30,553 nucleotides of DNA, from positions 1-30,553 of the IMG/VR virus record IMGVR_UViG_3300020276_000004; one strand, 5' to 3'. Positions 9,701 to 30,085 of the stretch are shown in pieces. Origin of the DNA: a virus (lineage: Duplodnaviria; Caudoviricetes). A program made the translations under genes and the position numbers. A model generated the notes under the pieces. That model worked only from the letters and a program-made list of their open reading frames with translations, was not told where the DNA came from and made no database searches. How positions within the stretch are numbered: position 1 is the stretch's first letter; each line of letters begins with the position of its first letter.

Positions 9701-10302
9701 TACAAGACACCCCCACCAGTTCTATCAAGAACAGAAACTACAGAATAGTTATCAAATATGGTGGTGTCTAACACTTGGTTGTCAGAGTCTTTTAATTCTA
9801 CTAATGCCATTAATTCATCTCTCTCTTGATAAATATGTAAGTCATTAGAAGAAACAACTCTGTCTTGAAAAATTCTAGCTGCTCTTATTGTTATATACCT
9901 ACGAGCAGCTTCTGGTAAATCTTCAAAATCTAATAGTACTACTGCATTCATCAAAACTTGTGTAATATCATCATCCATAAAAAATGAACTAGATGCTCTA
10001 TTATATAATTTTGTTCCTCGTTGTACAAGTTCTAATTTATCAGTTTTATCTTGAGCCATATCAATTCTTAAAATATTTGATGGTATTTGTATTTGTTTAT
10101 TTGTATCTGGCACAAACTGTCTTTTTAAGTCAGTATTAAAAGACCAACCCATAGACTGCACTTCACGATTTACAGAGTTAAGAATAGTTTCAGCTTGTTC
10201 AGCATCAACCAAACCAGAAGTAAGTGAGTTAACTGGACTCTCGCCAATAGCTGAGAGCATTGTATTTATAGCTTCAAGTTTAGTTGTTGTTGTCTGAGCC
10301 AT
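9700..10302 (-). CDS. Tail tubular protein A (gp11-like)
   Basis: LEAINTMLSAIGESPVNSL, VQSMGWSFN, F.DLPE.ARRYI..RAAR.FQ. Confidence 0.95.
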   Translation of the reverse strand: MAQTTTTKLEAINTMLSAIGESPVNSLTSGLVDAEQAETILNSVNREVQSMGWSFNTDLKRQFVPDTNKQIQIPSNILRIDMAQDKTDKLELVQRGTKLYNRASSSFFMDDDITQVLMNAVVLLDFEDLPEAARRYITIRAARIFQDRVVSSNDLHIYQERDELMALVELKDSDNQVLDTTIFDNYSVVSVLDRTGGGVL

Positions 10303-10637
10303 TATGCTTTATTCCTTTCTTTTGCATTTTTTGCTTGTTCAAGAAGTCTTCGACCTTTTGCTACTGCTGATGCTTTATCACCAGAGTGCCCCCAAGCTTC
10401 TAATGAGAGCTTCAATCTCGTCTTCTTCCCATCTTTGTTTAGTGGTCCTGCAGAAGACCCCATCCTCACTAGGAAAGAGCCTTTGCGTTTCTTTTTTTGT
10501 GGGCTATCTGCTGCACCTCCTACTGGTGCTTTTAAGTTACCACCAGTTTTTTTGTTATAAGATGCACGACCTTTTGCGTTAAGTCCTCCCTTTGGGTTTT
10601 GCCCCTCTTTTCGTTGCCACGCAGGTGTCCTAGCCAT
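10302..10637 (-). CDS. Small, very basic phage protein (resembles DUF6321 family)
   Basis: AWQRKEGQNPKGGLNAKGRASY...NLKAPV...SF..RM...GP...L.LSL.AW. Start moved to MARTP (10637), which overlaps an upstream TAA (TAATG). Confidence 0.75.
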   Translation of the reverse strand: MARTPAWQRKEGQNPKGGLNAKGRASYNKKTGGNLKAPVGGAADSPQKKKRKGSFLVRMGSSAGPLNKDGKKTRLKLSLEAWGHSGDKASAVAKGRRLLEQAKNAKERNKA

Positions 10638-10684
10638 TAGAACACCACCCATAATAATGTTGATACAAGAATGTAAGTAATCAT
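10637..10684 (-). CDS. Putative 15-aa hydrophobic minigene MITYILVSTLLWVVF
   Basis: Fills the gap exactly: ATGA overlap with the upstream stop and TAATG overlap with the downstream start. Confidence 0.5.
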   Translation of the reverse strand: MITYILVSTLLWVVF

Positions 10685-10875
10685 ACTCTATACTTCCTCA
10701 TACCAGAATTAGTTCTTTGTTTTGGCTTATCTTTAGCAGCCATAATTTTTGTTTGTATTTGTTTTGGCAAAGTTTTTTGTTTAGCAGTTAGACCACTTTT
10801 CTTTGCTTTATCTTTTTTATGTTGTTCTTTTCCTGCTTTAGTGTAAGGATATTTTTTTCCGTCTAATTTTGGCAT
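10681..10875 (-). CDS. Small Lys-rich phage protein
   Basis: 64 aa, MPKLDGKKYPYTKAGK start; TAATG coupling to the upstream gene. Confidence 0.75.
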   Translation of the reverse strand: MPKLDGKKYPYTKAGKEQHKKDKAKKSGLTAKQKTLPKQIQTKIMAAKDKPKQRTNSGMRKYRV

Positions 10876-11243
10876 TATACTCTGTACCTCCTAGTTTTGT
10901 TTGAGATTGATTTTGGTTGTTTACTAAATTGCTTTCCTGCTCTTGTGTCTGCTTTTTTCTTCCGATTAGTCGCTGCCCTTTCGGATGGCGATAACGCAGC
11001 AATCGCTTTTTTAGGTAAATACCTTGATTCACCTTTTTTACCTGCATACTGCCATTTTTGTTTGCCCCACTTTCGTAATTTATTGTTTGATTTTTTTGGT
11101 CCAGAATATGAACCACCTGCATCTTTATAATACTTTACTGCAAGTTGCATAGCCCTTGCTGAGTGTTTACCACCCATTTTGGCTTTTGCTCTGGCTTTAG
11201 CAGCAGCCCATTTTCTAGGGTCTCGCTTTGTGGCAGTACTCAT
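10875..11243 (-). CDS. Basic phage protein (resembles DUF5872 family)
   Basis: SARAMQLAVKYYKDAGG.Y.G, W.KQKW, RYLPKKA...LS..E.AATNR.K, GKQFSKQPK. Start at MSTATK overlaps the stop of the PqqA-like ORF (ATGA). Confidence 0.75.
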   Translation of the reverse strand: MSTATKRDPRKWAAAKARAKAKMGGKHSARAMQLAVKYYKDAGGSYSGPKKSNNKLRKWGKQKWQYAGKKGESRYLPKKAIAALSPSERAATNRKKKADTRAGKQFSKQPKSISNKTRRYRV

Positions 11244-11317
11244 TGTACTGCACACGCATAAGCATTGATTTCAAGACCAACACTTACCTCTGTTACTTGT
11301 GGTTTATTCCAAGACAT
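11240..11317 (-). CDS. pqqA: PQQ precursor peptide PqqA-like, MSWNKPQVTEVSVGLEINAYACAVQ
   Basis: 25 aa; GGAG RBS 7 nt upstream; W-x-K-P, E-x-x-V-G-x-E-x-x-x-Y with the invariant ExxxY (EINAY) and a YAC tail as in alphaproteobacterial PqqA; ATGA overlap with the next gene. Confidence 0.88.
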   Translation of the reverse strand: MSWNKPQVTEVSVGLEINAYACAVQ

Positions 11318-11331
11318 ATTTTTCTCCAAGT

Positions 11332-11359
11332 AAAAAGAGGAGTCCTTTCGGACTCCCCT
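11332..11359 (-). terminator. Intrinsic terminator after the capsid gene (T-phi equivalent)
   Basis: Minus strand GGGGAGTCC-GAAA-GGACTCCTC-TTTTT, about 12 nt after the capsid stop. Confidence 0.92.
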
Positions 11360-11370
11360 AGTTAGTATTA

Positions 11371-12480
11371 TTAGACACTAGATAGTGCGATAGCAGCAGC
11401 AGGTCTAAGAATGTTGTGACCCATTGCATACTTAGCAACCATCAATGTACCTTGACGATTAATTTGGTACTCGCTTTCTACTCCAAGGTCCATAAGTTTA
11501 ACAGTAGCTACAGCATCTTTAGTCATTACTAGTCCTTTTACTTTAGCAGCTAGGTCAACTAAGTTAACACTATCTACAGTTGTATTAGTAATGTCATATG
11601 CAGTAGTTCTGCCAGAACCTGCAGTATTAGCAAGTGGTCTATTACCTTTAGACTGACCTTTAGATGTACCAGATGTTTCAAGAACATCTGCAACTACTAA
11701 GTGGTTAGACATATAAATAGGCATACCTGCAATTTGTGGAACAACTGCAGATGCTACTGAGCCAGTACCACCAAAGTCACGATTCATATAGACCAGTTTA
11801 TTACCATCAGTTACATCCAATAACGCATAGTATTGGTCTGGTGGTAATACTACAAACGCACCATCAGTTGGAACATTTTTCTTATCGAATTCTTTCTTCG
11901 CATCAAAGATAGACTTTGCTAATTTAGCAGGGTCTGTAACATCTCCAGATGCTGCACCGATAGTCACATTGTCTGTGAAGTCTTCTTCAGAGAATGCTTT
12001 GTAGTCTTGAACAAGAGCAGCAGCCCTTGTTGCGTTAGTTGCTAGAGCAGCTTTTAGTGCTGTTCTAATTATGTTTTTGTCAGCTTCAGTTGCCAAGGCA
12101 ATTCCTGCCTCTTTACTGTATGTTGACCTTACATCGTAATGATTGATTGCCTCGTCAATGTTTGGCACAAATTGAGCCGAGATTAACAAATCGTCAATTG
12201 TTACGATTCTTTCCGATGCTCGTATCTTACCACCAGTAATTTCATTTCCAGGGGTGTGATACTCAGCACTTGTTCTACCTAAGAATGGAAAGGACGCTGA
12301 CTTCCCTTTAGTAATAGTTCGAGTCCTCATAAGAGGCATCATAATGTTTTTTGCTTCAAATGCAGTAAGAACTTCTCCTGCATACAGCTTTAAAAACAAA
12401 TCACGAACATCACCAGTAAGGTTAGTCTGTCCTAATCTACTCACATCATAGGCAGGATTGGATGCACCTTGCATAGCCAT
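11371..12480 (-). CDS. Major capsid protein (gp10-like)
   Basis: LFLKLYAGEVLTAF, RTI.KGKSASFP.LGR, ITIDDLL, YDVRS.YS.E.G.ALA, AKYAMGH..LRP; RBS AAGGAGG. Confidence 0.97.
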   Translation of the reverse strand: MAMQGASNPAYDVSRLGQTNLTGDVRDLFLKLYAGEVLTAFEAKNIMMPLMRTRTITKGKSASFPFLGRTSAEYHTPGNEITGGKIRASERIVTIDDLLISAQFVPNIDEAINHYDVRSTYSKEAGIALATEADKNIIRTALKAALATNATRAAALVQDYKAFSEEDFTDNVTIGAASGDVTDPAKLAKSIFDAKKEFDKKNVPTDGAFVVLPPDQYYALLDVTDGNKLVYMNRDFGGTGSVASAVVPQIAGMPIYMSNHLVVADVLETSGTSKGQSKGNRPLANTAGSGRTTAYDITNTTVDSVNLVDLAAKVKGLVMTKDAVATVKLMDLGVESEYQINRQGTLMVAKYAMGHNILRPAAAIALSSV

Positions 12481-12548
12481 AGTTATCCTCCTTATTAGTT
12501 ATAGCAAGTTGATATTGATTTATTATTACAAAGTTCTGCAAGTTTCGT

Positions 12549-12592
12549 TCTCTAAGATTATCCCTCGCAAGGGGTCAGAGATACTAGTCTCT
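12549..12592 (-). promoter_or_regulatory. Structured capsid mRNA leader (hairpin with internal loop)
   Basis: Minus strand TCTCTGA-C-CCCT-TGCG-AGGG-ATAATC-TTAGAGA; an alternative AGAGA/TCTCT pairing overlaps its 5' arm. Confidence 0.5.
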
Positions 12593-12610
12593 TTTAGTAT
12601 TTGTAACTTG

Positions 12611-12625
12611 TGTCTCATTGAGACA
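12611..12625. repeat. Palindrome TGTCTCAWTGAGACA, copy 1 (intergenic, 1 nt after scaffold stop)
   Basis: tgtctcattgagaca read directly. Confidence 0.95.
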
Positions 12626-12626
12626 G

Positions 12627-13391
12627 TTAGAGTACAGAAGATTTTCGTAACTTTTCAGCTACTTGACTTCTATACGCAGGGTCTTTTTCGTATCTTGGGT
12701 CAGACATCGCTGCAGTAATTTCTGCCAGACTTTGAAAGTTCCCTACTGTTGCATCGCCTACCTCACCTTTTACAAGGGTTGGTTCGACACCTACACCAGA
12801 ACGATAACGAGAATGGAGACCTTGAATTGCAAACACAGCATCTTGAGGGTTGCCAGTATCAACAGTTCTGTTAAATACTTCTTGCTCATCTGCTGTTAAG
12901 TTATTTGCAGCCCAATCCATCATATTTTTGTAGGATTCTTCTCCTCCTACTAAGTTATAGGCTTGTTGCCTAGTTTGGTCTACAAGAGCCATTTGTCCAT
13001 CTATAAATGAGTCTACCACATCTGATGGTATACCTGCATCTTCTAGTTGGTCATACTGCTCATCTGAGAGACCACCTTTTTCCCAAAAATCTTGAGACAT
13101 AGAACTATAGTCAATTCCGTGTGCTTCTAGTTCATCAATAGCTGCATCTTTGGTTTCCAAAGCTGCCTCATTGTCTTCTTCTCGACTTGAGTGAAACTGT
13201 TGCTCCAGTTCAGAATAAGCTTTTGCCATATCTTCTGGAGTGTTAAATTTTTCTGGTAGCCATTCTGGTCTATCTTGGACTTCTTCTGTAGCAGGTGGCT
13301 GTATTGCAGCTTCTGCTTTTTCTACCATTTCTTTTTGATAATTAGGGTCTTCTTGAGTTTCCCCTTGATATGTATTTAATTGTTCAGCCAT
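12627..13391 (-). CDS. Capsid scaffolding protein (gp9-like)
   Basis: Acidic; RPEWLPEKF...EDMAKAYSELE, VGGEE.Y..M..WA..NL, AMSDPRYEKDPAYR..V..KL. Confidence 0.95.
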   Translation of the reverse strand: MAEQLNTYQGETQEDPNYQKEMVEKAEAAIQPPATEEVQDRPEWLPEKFNTPEDMAKAYSELEQQFHSSREEDNEAALETKDAAIDELEAHGIDYSSMSQDFWEKGGLSDEQYDQLEDAGIPSDVVDSFIDGQMALVDQTRQQAYNLVGGEESYKNMMDWAANNLTADEQEVFNRTVDTGNPQDAVFAIQGLHSRYRSGVGVEPTLVKGEVGDATVGNFQSLAEITAAMSDPRYEKDPAYRSQVAEKLRKSSVL

Positions 13392-16367: not shown

Positions 16368-18248
16368 CTATAATTCACACGAATCACCAGTACAAGCTAA
16401 CTCTTGAGAACTAGTAGTCATATCCTTGACTTCCCTATACTTTGAGAAATCAATTATAGGCATATTATCAGATAACTTTTTAAATTGCAAGTTATTTATT
16501 TTTTCATATGGTGCTTGTACATATGAGTGAGAATCATCTTCTTTTGGTAAAAATGAAACACCACATATATCATCAAAATGCTCATATACATATGAACCTA
16601 CTTTCATCCATTCTTCTTCTCCTACATATACAGTAATTGATGGATTATGCTCGCACCAATTTTCTCTATAAGCTTTCCAAAGTTTAAGTTGGTCAATAGC
16701 ATTTAACTGCTCTTTCTTTTTACTATGTGTTGGACTTTGTATTGGAAAAGAGAATACATAGTTATGAGGGTTGTAAGAATCTTTTTCATACGGCACTCCC
16801 TCTTTTATCATCCACTCTGCAAGAGGGTCTTTAGTATCTGTTCTTACTCTTCTAATATAATAATCAGAATATCTTGGATGTATACCAGATGCACAATCAG
16901 CTAATTGAGATACTGTACCACTAGGTTTAACACAAGTTGTAGCAGTACTCTGATTCACTCCTAATATTTTTGCCCACTTTTTATTTGTGTCTATAACTAC
17001 TTGTTTTAATTGAGTTAATACATCTGTGTTAGTAACTTTATCGACATCAGCTAATAACTCATTATCTAAAATACCAGTCATAGAAACACCTAACAATCTT
17101 TCTTCTTCCATATTCTTTTTCCATATAGGTCTAAGATATCTTATGTCAGTAAGAGTAGATTGTATTGTACCAAGAAAAGATGCAACCTCTGCTTTTACTT
17201 TTAGAGTTTCTAAATCATCTTTTGGTTTAATAATTATTTCAGAAAGATTACAACATTGAGATGGTCGTAAAATTATTTCACCACAAGGGTTAGTTCCAAA
17301 ATAGTAATCGTGGTTTCTCCTGCCAGTTTTTTTTGATTGTTCTTTAGCTGCTTGTCTGTTAAACACTCCTCGTTCTCCAGATTTAGAACTATATAGAGCA
17401 GACCATTCTTTTATAAATCCACCCATTTCTGGTTTTCTGTTGTAAGCAATACTATTATTAGCATATGACCTATTAACATTCTCAGTCCACCAGTCTCCCA
17501 TTTTACAGTTACGCATCCTATCATCTACCATATCTGACAAACTAATCATTGCTGACCTACGGACACCACCTACTACAACTGCAGCAGCTACTGCACACAT
17601 AACATCGTGTGCTTCTATACTTGTTAGCTTTCTTCCTGCAGCCTTTTTAAATACATTGACTGTAAACCTAAATAAATTTTCTAGAGGCTGTGGACCACTT
17701 GCTCTACCACCAAATGTTTTAAGTCTTGCACCTGCAGGTCTTATCTTTGACAAATCCCATTTTGGAATCTCTCCTGCATACAATCTAGAAATTAGTTTTC
17801 GCAAACCTTTTGCCCAACCTAATTTACTATCTTCTACTACAAAGACTTCTTCTGTCTCATTGAGACACTCTGGTATATCTGGTAATTTTTCTACGCATTT
17901 TCTTTCAACAGAAAAACCAACACCAGTACCACACATAAGAACATACAGACATTCATCAAATGCTTTTGGGTCATCAACAGTCATATAAGAACAGTTATAA
18001 CCTGCAATATTATCTCTATCTAACGCAGGACCTGCTGACATAATGGCTCTCATTGATGGCACTACTTCAAGGTCTTTCATAAAGACAGAGTATTGTCTTA
18101 GTTGTTTTTCTGCCTTGGGTAACTTCTTAGCAAAGTAATCAACATATCTGTCAACACTTTCTTCCCAAGTTTCTCGCCTTTGTTCTTCTTCAATAAATCT
18201 AGCATAGCGAGATATTGCTATAAATTTCTGGTAAACATTCATCATCAT
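16368..18248 (-). CDS. nrdJ: Class II (adenosylcobalamin-dependent) ribonucleotide reductase, monomeric type
   Basis: PSMRA, YNCSY, LMCGTGVGFSVE, GGVRRSAMISL, TNPCGEI, TCVKPSGTVSQL, C-terminal ACTGDSCEL cysteine pair; no beta-subunit gene nearby. Confidence 0.9.
   Translation of the reverse strand: MMMNVYQKFIAISRYARFIEEEQRRETWEESVDRYVDYFAKKLPKAEKQLRQYSVFMKDLEVVPSMRAIMSAGPALDRDNIAGYNCSYMTVDDPKAFDECLYVLMCGTGVGFSVERKCVEKLPDIPECLNETEEVFVVEDSKLGWAKGLRKLISRLYAGEIPKWDLSKIRPAGARLKTFGGRASGPQPLENLFRFTVNVFKKAAGRKLTSIEAHDVMCAVAAAVVVGGVRRSAMISLSDMVDDRMRNCKMGDWWTENVNRSYANNSIAYNRKPEMGGFIKEWSALYSSKSGERGVFNRQAAKEQSKKTGRRNHDYYFGTNPCGEIILRPSQCCNLSEIIIKPKDDLETLKVKAEVASFLGTIQSTLTDIRYLRPIWKKNMEEERLLGVSMTGILDNELLADVDKVTNTDVLTQLKQVVIDTNKKWAKILGVNQSTATTCVKPSGTVSQLADCASGIHPRYSDYYIRRVRTDTKDPLAEWMIKEGVPYEKDSYNPHNYVFSFPIQSPTHSKKKEQLNAIDQLKLWKAYRENWCEHNPSITVYVGEEEWMKVGSYVYEHFDDICGVSFLPKEDDSHSYVQAPYEKINNLQFKKLSDNMPIIDFSKYREVKDMTTSSQELACTGDSCEL
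17853..17867. repeat. Palindrome copy 2 (inside RNR, encodes CLNET)
   Basis: tgtctcattgagaca read directly. Confidence 0.95.
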
Positions 18249-19761: not shown

Positions 19762-21505
19762 TTTTGAACTCTCCGTCAAGGGGTACTCTGAGGTTGTAAT
19801 ACTCTCCTGCTTTTTTGATTGCTTCGACACAGATTTTACCAATTTCTTCTCCTTTATGTTTTTTAACTAATACTTGCACTTCATCGTGTACATAGGCTAC
19901 TTGTTTATAACAACAACCATCTATATAGCCTCTTTCTTTTAACAAATCGTGAAATATAACAATCCATCGTTTTGTTAAAATTGCTCCACAACTTTGGAGA
20001 AGAGTATTTAGTGCTGCGTGTGGGTGCATAACTGGTATTCTCCTTTTATCAATACCAAAAATATACCCATTCTCTGCAGTTTTTTGAACAGATTCTGTTA
20101 GGTTTTTTAATGCAGGTATCTTTTTAAAGAAATCTGCTTTTATCCTGCTACCCTCTTGGCTACCTTTGCCAATAATCTTACCAAGTTTTTCGTTCCCTGC
20201 CCCATAAATGAGAGCATAGATAAAAGTTTTGGCATTATCACGAGTTGGTAACCCTGCTGCATTTTGGTTAATTGTATGGATGTCATCGTTAACAACCTGC
20301 TTACCATATCGACCATCATCCCAGTTAGCCATATAGTGGGATAAGCAACGCAACTCCAAACTACTAGCATCGCACCCCATAAGGCTGTAGTCATCATTAG
20401 CATAAAACAAACTACGACAATCCACCCCATATTCAGCTTTGACACTAGGTATTTGAGCCATATTTGGGTTCTTGTGTGTGCATCTCGAAGTGTATGTTCC
20501 CATTGGGTTAACATATCCATTTATCTTTCCTTTCTTTACTAGTTTCAACCAAGCTTGTTTACCCTCTGCAAGTTGTCCTAGCCTTTTTTGTATTGTTAAA
20601 TATTTAGTTAGTACTTTTGCCTCTGGATAATCCAAAGAACTAAGAACTCGTTCATCTACTTTAGGTAATCCAGTCTCTGTAAAAACTTTTGGCTTCCAGT
20701 CATACTTTTCTTGTAGCATTCTGGCTATATGTTCTCTACTATTTGGATTAAACTCAGTAACAGTTCTCTTTATAATAGGTACACCTTTTTCATATCCATA
20801 TTTTTTACTATTAACTTTTGGTACAAACTCTTCTTCGTGTACCCAAGCAGTTATGTCTTTCTTCAAGTCTGTCTCAATGAGACACCTCTCGTCATTCAAT
20901 TTAGAAAAAAGCTTTTGTGCTGCCTCTTCATCAAATGGAAAGCCGTGTTCTTGTTGTGCAAACAAAATTTCTTGAATTCTATGTTCCAACTTAACTGCAT
21001 CTTGAGAGTATTTTATGTTCTCAAATTTTTTATACAGACAAGTATTTAGCCAAACATCTTGCTGACAATATTGTAACATATCTTCAGAAAAAACAGAGAA
21101 GTCACTTTCTTCTGCAAACTTCCCTTTGCTTACACCTATTCTATACCCCCAAGCTTTTAGACTGTGTGAGCCTATAAGTTGTGGTGGTAAATTACCTTTT
21201 CTAAATAGTTTAAAATCTCTATTTTTTCTATCTGGAAAATATAATCTACCCAATACAAGGGTATCAACCACTATTGCTTTTGGTTCTACATCATATAATT
21301 TTTTTATGACTGGTAAGTCAAAACATATAATATTATGACCAATTAGAACTTCTGCTTTCTGTAGAAATTCTATACCATCTCCAATAGTGTCCTTTTTAAA
21401 AATGTACTCTTTATCATTGTCGCTAACATCTCTGGCAACGATACAATGTATCTTAGTAACACTCTCTAAAAGTCCGTCAGTTTCTATATCAAATACTAGT
21501 TTCAT
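19733..21505 (-). CDS. DNA polymerase family A (gp5-like) with 3'-5' exonuclease
   Basis: FDIETDG, GHNI..FD, motif A DASSLELR, motif B RDNAKTFIYALIYG, motif C VHDE. Confidence 0.97.
   Translation of the reverse strand: MKLVFDIETDGLLESVTKIHCIVARDVSDNDKEYIFKKDTIGDGIEFLQKAEVLIGHNIICFDLPVIKKLYDVEPKAIVVDTLVLGRLYFPDRKNRDFKLFRKGNLPPQLIGSHSLKAWGYRIGVSKGKFAEESDFSVFSEDMLQYCQQDVWLNTCLYKKFENIKYSQDAVKLEHRIQEILFAQQEHGFPFDEEAAQKLFSKLNDERCLIETDLKKDITAWVHEEEFVPKVNSKKYGYEKGVPIIKRTVTEFNPNSREHIARMLQEKYDWKPKVFTETGLPKVDERVLSSLDYPEAKVLTKYLTIQKRLGQLAEGKQAWLKLVKKGKINGYVNPMGTYTSRCTHKNPNMAQIPSVKAEYGVDCRSLFYANDDYSLMGCDASSLELRCLSHYMANWDDGRYGKQVVNDDIHTINQNAAGLPTRDNAKTFIYALIYGAGNEKLGKIIGKGSQEGSRIKADFFKKIPALKNLTESVQKTAENGYIFGIDKRRIPVMHPHAALNTLLQSCGAILTKRWIVIFHDLLKERGYIDGCCYKQVAYVHDEVQVLVKKHKGEEIGKICVEAIKKAGEYYNLRVPLDGEFKIGKNWAETH
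20870..20884. repeat. Palindrome copy 3 (inside DNA polymerase, encodes CLIET)
   Basis: tgtctcaatgagaca read directly. Confidence 0.95.
21380..21392 (-). promoter_or_regulatory. Candidate phage RNAP promoter variant GGACACTATTGGA
   Basis: One mismatch to the 16288-16300 copy; same orientation. Confidence 0.4.
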
Positions 21506-23126
21506 TTAGTTCATCCTTTTCATTAAAAGTAATATCATCTATATCATCTTCATCAGTAATAGTCAACTCACTCATACGAGCAGTATGTTTATCATAAGCT
21601 AGTTTACAAGCTACTCCAGTTTCTCCAGTCCACCTATTCTTTAATACTCTTACAGTTGTTGTAGGAGAATTATCAGATAAGTTTCTTTCACAACCAATAC
21701 AAATATCTGTTAGTTGTGCAATACCACTAGAACCTCTTAACTGACCAAGACTTACTCTTGCTCCATCAGTATGGTCTTTACCATCTGGTCTTTTAAGATG
21801 CGAGACTAATATCAAGCCAACCTTTAGTTCTTCTACTAATCCTCTTAGTTTTGTCATAGTATTATCAATAGTTCGTCTTTCGTCTCCCTCTGATATACCA
21901 GACACAACAATACTAATATGGTCAAGAACAATAAAAGAACATCCACAACCATTTGCAAGGTATCTAATCTTAGCCAACAAATTATCTGACTCAGTAGAAC
22001 CCCAATGGTCATAAAGATATACTCTACCAGTTCCTAGTGTTTCTTCAAAGGATTTTTTTAGTTCCTTGTCAGTTACATCTACATTACCTAGGTGTAGTGG
22101 TTTATTTAATGCAATAGACATAAGCCCAAGGGCTGACCTCTTTACACTTTCCTCAAGAGCAATATAACCAATTGTCTGTCCTTGATGTAATAAGTAATGG
22201 GCAATCTCTCTACAGAGTTGACTTTTACCTACACCAGAGCCTGCAGTTATGGTTACAATCTCTCCCTTTCGTAATCCAAGTGTTTTACCATTTAAACCAC
22301 TAAATGGATACTCAAAAGATTCAGTATCATCTGTCGATGAGACTAACTCCCATAAATCTGCTCCATTGACAATACCATCTGGTCTAAAGTCCTTGGCATC
22401 CCACATACAATCAATAAGTTCATTTACCTTTCCTGCTACCAACATTTCATTGGCATCTTTCATTGGTAAACTAGCAATCTTTGCTTTGTTGGGTGGTAGT
22501 ATGGATGCACAATCTTGAGCAGCTTTTCTACCTGCCTCATCATTGTCAAACATAAAAACAACTTTGTCGAACTTACTTAACCACTCCAAAGCTTTAGCGA
22601 CATCTTTTTTTGCCCCTGCTGCTCCGTGAGGTACAGAGACAACAGCCCACTTATTATTTAAGGCTTGGCTCATTGACAGAGCATCAATCTCTCCCTCGAC
22701 CACAGTTACTTGTTTACCACCATCTCTCCATAGCCATTGACCATACAAAGATACTTTTTCAGTCTTGCCAATAAATAAAAAATCTTTATTAGGAAATCTT
22801 AATTTTTGTGCAATGACTGTTCCTTGATTATCTTTATAGTTAGCAATCTGTACTGCTTTACCATTGTAGTTACCTACTTGATAATCCCACTTCTTGATTG
22901 TAGCTTGATTAATACTTCTCTTAGCTAATGGTTTTTGTTCACCATCTGTAATTAATCCTGCATTCACTTTTTCTCTCCTTTCTGTCTCATTGAGACAATC
23001 TTTTTCTATATACCCACACGAGAAACAATATCCGTGCCCATCGTCATAGATAGCAAACGCATCAGACGATGGGCAATTCGGACAAGGATTGTGGGTTAAG
23101 AAGTTGCTTTCTTCGTGCTCCACCAT
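21489..23126 (-). CDS. Primase-helicase (gp4-like)
   Basis: Zn finger CPNC...CFSC, TOPRIM VEGEIDA / FDND.AG, Walker A AGSGVGKS, LDHISI, LRGS..IAQL, LKNRWTGETG. Confidence 0.97.
   Translation of the reverse strand: MVEHEESNFLTHNPCPNCPSSDAFAIYDDGHGYCFSCGYIEKDCLNETERREKVNAGLITDGEQKPLAKRSINQATIKKWDYQVGNYNGKAVQIANYKDNQGTVIAQKLRFPNKDFLFIGKTEKVSLYGQWLWRDGGKQVTVVEGEIDALSMSQALNNKWAVVSVPHGAAGAKKDVAKALEWLSKFDKVVFMFDNDEAGRKAAQDCASILPPNKAKIASLPMKDANEMLVAGKVNELIDCMWDAKDFRPDGIVNGADLWELVSSTDDTESFEYPFSGLNGKTLGLRKGEIVTITAGSGVGKSQLCREIAHYLLHQGQTIGYIALEESVKRSALGLMSIALNKPLHLGNVDVTDKELKKSFEETLGTGRVYLYDHWGSTESDNLLAKIRYLANGCGCSFIVLDHISIVVSGISEGDERRTIDNTMTKLRGLVEELKVGLILVSHLKRPDGKDHTDGARVSLGQLRGSSGIAQLTDICIGCERNLSDNSPTTTVRVLKNRWTGETGVACKLAYDKHTARMSELTITDEDDIDDITFNEKDELNETSI
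22983..22997. repeat. Palindrome copy 4 (primase Zn-finger linker, encodes CLNET)
   Basis: tgtctcattgagaca read directly. Confidence 0.95.
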
Positions 23127-24672: not shown

Positions 24673-24687
24673 TGTCTCATTGAGACA
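24673..24687. repeat. Palindrome copy 5 (intergenic, abutting the RNAP stop codon)
   Basis: tgtctcattgagaca read directly. Confidence 0.95.
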
Positions 24688-27552: not shown

Positions 27553-27782
27553 TCTGTATCTCCCTTTGAAAGACCATAAAAAGATTTTTTATGTTCCCAC
27601 AGAGGCTCATCTATACACATATATCCCCACATTTTTTCTGGGTACTTTTCTTTTAATTTTTTTGTGAGTGGTTCAAGTGTCTCAATGAGACAGTCTGGTA
27701 CTTTTGCAATAAATTTTTCTGTGTACGGAGCATCTTTGTATCCGTGTAATATAATTATGAGAACCATTGCAGTTTTTATCAT
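27540..27782 (-). CDS. Hypothetical protein with hydrophobic N-terminus
   Basis: 80 aa; ATGA overlap with the GNAT stop. Confidence 0.7.
   Translation of the reverse strand: MIKTAMVLIIILHGYKDAPYTEKFIAKVPDCLIETLEPLTKKLKEKYPEKMWGYMCIDEPLWEHKKSFYGLSKGDTELTY
27678..27692. repeat. Palindrome copy 6 (encodes CLIET)
   Basis: tgtctcaatgagaca read directly. Confidence 0.95.
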
Positions 27783-29212: not shown

Positions 29213-29428
29213 TTAGTTAATTAGTTTATTATAATCTAGTGTTGCTTCTTTTACTTCGTCAAGCAACTGTCTCAATGAGACACTCATATCAGATTCTAAA
29301 ACTTCATCGTCAACAGCAGTAGCAAGGTCAGACAGAAGACCAACAAAATATGCATTGTCCTCTGCCAAACCTTGTACTATATTTCTGAGAATCGTAATCT
29401 CAGTCTTATGAGTTAAATTGTTCTTCAA
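29213..29428 (-). CDS. Helical hypothetical protein (probable TTG start)
   Basis: GAGGT before the TTG at 29428 reduces overlap with the upstream gene. Confidence 0.6.
   Translation of the reverse strand: MKNNLTHKTEITILRNIVQGLAEDNAYFVGLLSDLATAVDDEVLESDMSVSLRQLLDEVKEATLDYNKLIN
29268..29282. repeat. Palindrome copy 7 (read in a different frame, VSLRQ)
   Basis: tgtctcaatgagaca read directly. Confidence 0.95.
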
Positions 29429-29732: not shown

Positions 29733-30085
29733 TTTGACCTCCTAAATGCAATAGTTGTGTTATATATAGAATCCTCAATGTACCTGCCATCTCTCCAGTC
29801 TTTCAACCAGTTGTAAAATGTAGGTAGTGAGATGAAGTAGTATTTAGCTAACTCTACAACCTTAACTCCATTGTCTTGATTAACTAGAAAGTATTCTACA
29901 ATTCTCTTCTGCTCAGACTTTGAGTATCTAGAGTAATGCATATACTTACCAGTTCTCTTTGGATGTTGAGGTTTTGGTAACTTGTGAGCACCGATGGTTA
30001 GCCTTTTTGGTGTCTCAATGAGACGAGGGGAATCCTTAAACATATCTAACTGTTTTGGATTGTTTGTAGTAGGTTCTAGCAACAT
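29729..30085 (-). CDS. Helix-turn-helix DNA-binding protein
   Basis: RYSKSEQKRIV...KVVELAKYYFISLPTFYNWLK fits a homeodomain-like / transposase-type HTH; RBS AAAGGAGA; first gene behind a consensus promoter. Confidence 0.75.
   Translation of the reverse strand: MLLEPTTNNPKQLDMFKDSPRLIETPKRLTIGAHKLPKPQHPKRTGKYMHYSRYSKSEQKRIVEYFLVNQDNGVKVVELAKYYFISLPTFYNWLKDWRDGRYIEDSIYNTTIAFRRSK
30011..30025. repeat. Palindrome copy 8, one-mismatch variant, inside the HTH gene (RLIET)
   Basis: tgtctcaatgagacg read directly. Confidence 0.85.

Follow-up and report, generated by a model that had tools for sequence, protein, structure and literature searches.

In bacteria, the cofactor PQQ is made from the peptide PqqA. 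PqqE cross-links a Glu and a Tyr residue of the peptide, with PqqD acting as chaperone, and PqqB and PqqC complete the molecule (PMC9851590; PMC10906245). In the numbering of M. extorquens PqqA these residues are Glu-16 and Tyr-20 (PMC10906245). One methylotroph has five copies of pqqA, three of them orphans, and pqqA is highly expressed (PMC9851590). The bacterial family is represented by the models PF08042 and TIGR02107 and includes alphaproteobacterial members, orphan copies among them.

Copies of the gene in viruses are already in print. In 2020 the PqqA of a Lake Baikal viral population, VP_266, was proposed to be the product of an auxiliary gene that boosts PQQ-dependent oxidation, in this case that of methanol (Coutinho et al. 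2020, PMC7678222). An earlier note on the DNA described here could not say whether a phage pqqA had been described; both the gene and the reasoning attached to it had been published for the Lake Baikal virus. A paper on reservoir sediments names viral pqqA, pqqD and pqqE among phosphorus-cycling auxiliary metabolic genes (AMGs), where they are listed but not analysed in the part that concerns them (PMC13188868). These two papers were the only relevant ones found in a search for phage or viral pqqA as an AMG, and none was found on pqqA in T7-like phages (Autographiviridae); most subscription journals lay outside both searches. A further copy, unannotated, was detected in the cultured Methylophilales phage Melnitz EXVC044M (MZ577097, ~76135-76209; L484), where it scores 31.6 bits with TIGR02107, above the cut-off. 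It adjoins a tRNA-Leu gene and lies beneath a hypothetical gene called on the opposite strand in GenBank. Melnitz is cultured with Methylophilales H5P1, for which the medium in print has PQQ at 1 nM.

The sequence analysed here, referred to as the window, is a stretch of 30,553 nucleotides from a virus record estimated to be 74% complete. It belongs to an uncultured marine phage of the T7-like kind, which encodes an RNA polymerase and a DNA polymerase of its own, a primase-helicase, and portal, scaffold, capsid, tube and nozzle proteins. Cultured relatives are distant, none exceeding 44% identity in the capsid or 40% in the RNA polymerase. A PqqA gene lies directly behind the capsid gene (Table 1). 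The Melnitz peptide resembles the window copy in being encoded by a stand-alone frame with a Shine-Dalgarno (SD) sequence in a phage and in exceeding the TIGR02107 cut-off; it differs in being of the Methylophilaceae type and in belonging to a T4-like phage with a cultured host. VP_266 is likewise T4-like. It comes from fresh water, is predicted to infect Methylophilaceae and is reported to carry a methanol dehydrogenase gene (PMC7678222), whereas the window phage is T7-like and marine, and has an alphaproteobacterial-type pqqA alone.

Table 1. Features of the pqqA region in the window, in order of transcription.
Feature	Position	Strand	Remarks
Major capsid protein, T7-type	11371..12480	minus	upstream neighbour of pqqA; PF21703, E 7e-66
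Terminator-like hairpin and T-run	11359..11332	minus	3' of capsid gene; stem 11359-11336; five T's end at 11332
SD-like GGAG	11327-11324	minus	6 nt 5' of pqqA ATG; from sequence
pqqA	11317..11240	minus	25 aa, 78 nt; matches PF08042 and TIGR02107; Glu16/Tyr20 are the predicted cross-link residues
Predicted RNA hairpin	11229..11255	minus	AUGA stop/start overlap in loop; fold prediction
122-aa Lys/Arg-rich gene (phrog_14910)	10875..11243	minus	overlaps pqqA stop; no SD of its own in carriers

The peptide scores 30.6 bits with PF08042 (E 3.3e-7, cut-off 21.1) and 40.2 bits with TIGR02107 (E 2e-10, cut-off 20). The window has a single match to its motif, W..P...G.E[IV]..Y, and 200 codon shuffles gave none; with both model cut-offs passed, this rules out a chance reading frame. 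The frame is short and stands alone, with an N-terminal W-x-K-P leader, its own ribosome-binding site and a conserved Glu-x-x-x-Tyr core near the C-terminus. Translation of the plus strand at 11240..11317 gives an unrelated frame. The ATG lies 14 nt past the end of the terminator T-run, and the pqqA TGA shares the letters ATGA at 11243-11240 with the ATG of the next gene. All 14 same-species loci, L474 included, keep the frame intact, and all 14 retain GGAG and E16/Y20. The earlier note had called the gene a PqqA from its letters, and its translation, ribosome-binding site and spacing agree exactly with what was found; it gave no strand, which is the minus strand. Like bacterial PqqA, the window peptide passes both family cut-offs, has 25 residues and places Glu16 and Tyr20 in the M. 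extorquens register; unlike it, the gene is borne by a phage, is without pqqB-E and overlaps a phage gene. It is a real PqqA gene, likely functional, and one that adds a T7-like carrier to the phage pqqA already in print.

Viral genes flank pqqA on both sides, capsid upstream and tail tube and nozzle downstream, the placement looked for in an AMG. Host DNA mis-joined to a phage is ruled out, since the identical junction occurs in 14 other loci with viral genes on both flanks. The PqqB-E families had no match among the 35 window proteins scanned, in keeping with the earlier note, nor did TIGR02109, the PqqE model, match in the window. Searches there for the PQQ alcohol dehydrogenase family and for the SoxYZ-like carrier were negative too. 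Two records almost identical to the window, G006 and G007, continue the genome as far as the terminase and into the early region; among the 17 ORFs scanned in these extensions there were no pqq enzyme or PQQ dehydrogenase families. A pqqABCDE cluster is therefore not present, pqqB-E being absent from the window, from these extensions and from 80 viral loci described below.

Some other features of the genome were noted. A 15-nt near-perfect, operator-like palindrome occurs in eight copies, one of them mismatched and some intergenic, others intragenic (12611-12625, 17853-17867, 20870-20884, 22983-22997, 24673-24687, 27678-27692, 29268-29282 and 30011-30025). It lies 5' of the capsid gene in six of seven conspecific loci, the seventh (L006) having a different palindrome, and other relatives are without it. 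At ~12530-12570, before the capsid gene, lies an element containing a short GC-rich hairpin. It is conserved in most relatives (L001-L080), down to 72% capsid identity, and is a candidate phage promoter or processing site. In the conspecific record G006 (L476:923-4775), the genes after that for the T7 tail fibre encode two RCC1-repeat proteins.

Comparison with the best 80 of 456 capsid relatives revealed pqqA 3' of the terminator in seven, whose capsids all have an identity of 97.8% or more. The remaining 73 (capsid 72–91%) are without it; two of these end early downstream. TIGR02107 matched both conspecific records tested and had no match in any of 25 non-conspecific records, five of which are at least 90% complete. 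In L014, L015, L018 and L021 the 122-aa gene comes directly after the terminator, and the alignment has a gap of ~70 nt at the pqqA site. By these alignments pqqA is a recent insertion of ~70 nt behind the capsid terminator, with empty-site relatives present, and its absence from the 73 relatives and from all 25 non-conspecific records means that it is dispensable for the clade.

The terminator-like hairpin after the capsid stop is present in relatives also. With six T in eight nt, that of the window is, read by eye, within the range of non-carriers. In five alleles (L001-L004 and L469) a C interrupts the T-run, which might raise read-through. The region between capsid terminator and tail tube, 10302-11243 in the window, holds small Lys/Arg-rich ORFs, including a DUF6321 protein, in a cassette that varies among relatives and is 250–1750 nt long in them. 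Its small basic proteins are possibly DNA-condensing.

A degenerate motif scan of viral contigs gave at least 119 pqqA loci of an estimated 220 or so, in contigs whose architectures are of several unrelated kinds. Among the matches listed there are 48 distinct peptides, and an SD-like word precedes 118 of the 119 copies. Eighty loci with flanks were sorted by common gene families into 11 groups, which are not equivalent to proven independent acquisitions; annotation used one representative per family, with 103 proteins scanned. The largest group, of terminase-portal-Cpn10-capsid type, has 38 loci, and a holin-ribonucleotide-reductase group has 12. Others include T4-like viruses with gp59, gp33, gp32, PhoH and Fe-S genes. 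Among the matches listed, pqqB, C, D or E occurs within ~5 kb at none of the 80 viral loci, compared with 50 of 80 cellular loci.

Since the first motif fixed Glu and Tyr, the scan was repeated with both codons free. Both residues were present in 76/76 distinct viral cores, so that the conservation of ExxxY proposed as a check by the earlier note was found to hold. Both synonymous codons are in use for each (58/18 for Glu and 52/24 for Tyr), and the other free positions of the motif have three to eight residues each. The remaining positions were fixed by the search pattern and carry no evidence of conservation.

In the main T4-like group, 8 of 15 loci have a SoxYZ-like fusion near pqqA (L159:2863-3615, L082, L100, L103, L121, L122, L128 and L135, all marine). 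The one tested, that of L159, narrowly passed TIGR04557, the quinoprotein dehydrogenase-associated carrier, at 140.7 against a cut-off of 140. Some of these carriers also have IscA- and IscU-like genes. Neither the SoxYZ-like protein nor a pqqA region from group 1 had a match among cultured phages. A tblastn search of cultured phages with the pqqA peptide gave no match; a 25-aa query is weak, and this one missed Melnitz. No PqqA was found in two cultured T7-like marine phages tested.

The explanation that best accounts for these findings, at a probability of roughly 0.6, is that pqqA is a substrate-only AMG that feeds the PqqD, E, B and C of the host. It has direct support in HMM family membership, the insertion, the missing enzymes and the conservation of Glu and Tyr in phage copies; the remaining steps are inferred. 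Also in its favour are the SD-like words before nearly all listed viral copies, the frames kept intact within the species, the mainly synonymous variation of pqqA in another phage lineage, the SoxYZ-like fusions of T4-like carriers, the several pqqA copies of low-GC marine alphaproteobacteria, the orphan copies and high expression in the literature, and the RNA-library contigs across the gene. Read-through of the capsid terminator would give late expression. Host PqqD would bind the leader of the phage peptide, PqqE would cross-link Glu16 to Tyr20, and the host enzymes together would convert the peptide to PQQ. The extra precursor could then keep periplasmic PQQ dehydrogenases for methanol, alcohol or glucose supplied once host transcription declines. 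The logic would be one of dosage. As one peptide is consumed per PQQ and the enzymes are reused, a gene of 78 nt would be the cheapest handle on the pathway. Counting against this reading are the five non-synonymous and no synonymous variant codons in pqqA, the lack of the gene in most of the clade, the lack of a cellular genome or metagenome contig, other than those of the phage, with its exact AT-rich variant, RNA evidence that consists of contigs, and the lack of a PQQ enzyme or a SoxYZ-like carrier in this phage. Furthermore, PqqA need not limit PQQ formation; an order of pqqB > pqqA for the effect of overexpression in G. oxydans is cited in one paper (PMC7936290).

With respect to expression, RNA libraries holding the phage are mostly of marine, seawater or salt-marsh origin, with one from fresh water. 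In two of four runs, examined as contigs only, a single contig spans the end of the capsid gene, the terminator and pqqA (X2, 10621-11787; X4, 11079-12746). Another (X11) enters pqqA, and one (X1) stops at 11355, inside the terminator, as happens in a single study. X2 covers 28 of 30 bins of the remaining window, so DNA would give the same picture; X4 covers 13 of 30. The contigs X2 and X4 thus establish the presence of spanning sequence, short of proof for read-through. At 10327 and 19337 the loose ends of X4 are poly-T, which, given usual library practice, would fit poly(A)-tailed coding-strand RNA.

Variation within the species bears on why the gene is kept. In 13 same-species loci compared with the window as reference, a small set of related alleles, the counts of synonymous and non-synonymous variant codons are 0 and 5 in pqqA against 37 and 19 in the capsid gene (Fisher p=0.007) and 11 and 7 in the 122-aa gene (p=0.04). 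In a contrasting phage lineage pqqA has 17 synonymous and 3 non-synonymous variant codons. The 122-aa gene is under purifying selection within the species, with a pN/pS of 0.18. An SD-like word precedes it in the non-carriers L015, L017, L021 and L022 and is missing in carriers; that it is nevertheless conserved indirectly suggests that pqqA is translated and supplies a second possible reason for its retention. In the present lineage, then, pqqA might be an approximately neutral passenger, retained chiefly because its translation, as that of a leader, opens a hairpin and brings ribosomes to the next gene, whose ribosome-binding site was lost at the insertion. The counts in pqqA would agree with this, as would the predicted hairpin around the AUGA overlap, in which two of the five amino-acid changes create additional pairs and one, in L474, is accompanied by a matching change on the other side. 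With fixed flanks the fold beats 300 of 300 synonymous re-codings, in a test whose design is biased towards the real sequence; taken by itself, the coding region does not exceed its re-codings in structure (z -0.6). The five changes, at positions 2, 8, 21, 24 and 25, lie outside the core and all miss W3, K5, P6, E10, V13-N18, Y20 and C22. L474, a single short contig of 1.2 kb, has an intact pqqA and SD although its downstream gene has decayed or been lost, and a role in coupling fails to explain the other phage groups. Retention as a leader is considered unlikely.

The peptide may also lead to PQQ with some benefit other than dehydrogenase-derived energy, the cofactor serving as a redox scavenger for the infected cell or the virions or being exported as a shared cofactor. 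The sequence evidence is equal to that for the substrate-only gene acting through dehydrogenases, many bacteria import PQQ instead of making it (PMC12124388), and no dehydrogenase-linked gene was found in the present phage. Against this, the T4-like carriers pair pqqA with a quinoprotein dehydrogenase-associated carrier, and common marine cellular carriers of this PqqA type include MED657, named within Clade X of the methylotrophic order TMED127, whose xoxF5 ranked first among the transcripts of a time series (PMC12542740). Such a benefit is regarded as quite unlikely.

A decoy, as the earlier note had also suggested, would tie up host PqqD or PqqE and lower PQQ, for example limiting formaldehyde or sparing SAM. 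Late, possibly abundant expression 3' of the capsid gene would suit this role, as would the unusual Ala19 and C-terminal tail and the excess of amino-acid change within the species. A decoy that leads to no product would need its leader but could dispense with the residues that react; Glu and Tyr are nonetheless invariant in all 76 viral cores. Cellular peptides with Ala at the same position or Val in the tail exist (e.g., L236 and L268), and the tail may derive from the insertion site, as the spacer of L021/L022 matches its last 5 nt. Of the two roles proposed in the earlier note, substrate supply fits better because it is the two residues incorporated into PQQ that never vary, and the decoy is improbable. 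A function in defence or counter-defence is highly improbable. It might be suggested by a marine family of RiPPs, annotated as PqqA, whose expression is reported to go with that of defence systems close by (PMC11118758), but this is a host-side correlation only, no defence-type gene occurs among the annotated direct neighbours here, and conservation tracks PQQ chemistry.

The substrate-only reading calls for a host that makes PQQ, as the earlier note predicted, and this would be a marine alphaproteobacterium. In a cellular scan, from which 121 of about 220 loci were taken, carriers of the motif were almost wholly alphaproteobacterial (80 titles among the matches listed), which bears out the type assigned by the earlier note. 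Among these matches, low-GC marine alphaproteobacteria have the types closest to most viral copies, and MED657, one of them, is among the commonest marine carriers. The window peptide shares 15–16 of 21 core residues with such copies. At the nucleotide level the closest sampled copies are other viral ones (50/63 nt), ahead of the cellular ones (47/63); 63 nt cannot resolve the donor or the order of transfer. Two low-GC marine alphaproteobacteria with this peptide type, G003 and G005, have three and four copies of pqqA, respectively. PqqE is present in G003, G004 and G005, and in G005 pqqABCDE lies beside a PQQ dehydrogenase and a SoxYZ-like gene.

The exact window variant, with Ala19 and AT-rich codons, had no match in cellular genome contigs. 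It had eight in viral contigs and six in metagenome contigs, all from its own phage species, and therefore a TMED127 host cannot be claimed. Two bins with capsid relatives (L321, 87%; L322, 73%) were rejected as hosts, neither having a pqqA over the cut-off and G001 having no PqqE over the cut-off; they are regarded as phage sequence that was binned or co-sorted. The contig L203, placed in a Maricaulis bin, is probably also a binned phage: its GC content is 36%, it lacks pqqB-E, and both its peptide and its leader are those of the largest viral group.

Known AMGs mostly encode enzymes or replacement subunits. A gene that gives only an expendable cofactor precursor would, if the reading is true, be a very cheap means of steering host energy metabolism. 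Being below normal gene-calling limits, pqqA is missed by surveys. Tentatively, and with somewhat less than an even chance of being right, a broader proposal can be made: that pqqA alone has been acquired repeatedly by marine phages unrelated to one another (of T7-like, T4-like and two or more other architectures), that it is a widespread and mostly unannotated type of auxiliary gene supplying a consumable peptide substrate and not an enzyme, and that viruses thereby set how much PQQ is available to streamlined alphaproteobacteria of the surface ocean, such as TMED127, for lanthanide-dependent oxidation of methanol. The window copy contributes a carrier of the T7-like kind and an insertion that is recent, the empty site being seen in relatives; it is by itself no proof of function. 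The copy in cultured Melnitz makes the idea testable. The type of PqqA peptide may help to indicate the hosts of phages that are uncultured, and the occurrence of the gene in hundreds of viral contigs from the sea would link infection there to PQQ-dependent oxidation of methanol and sugars.
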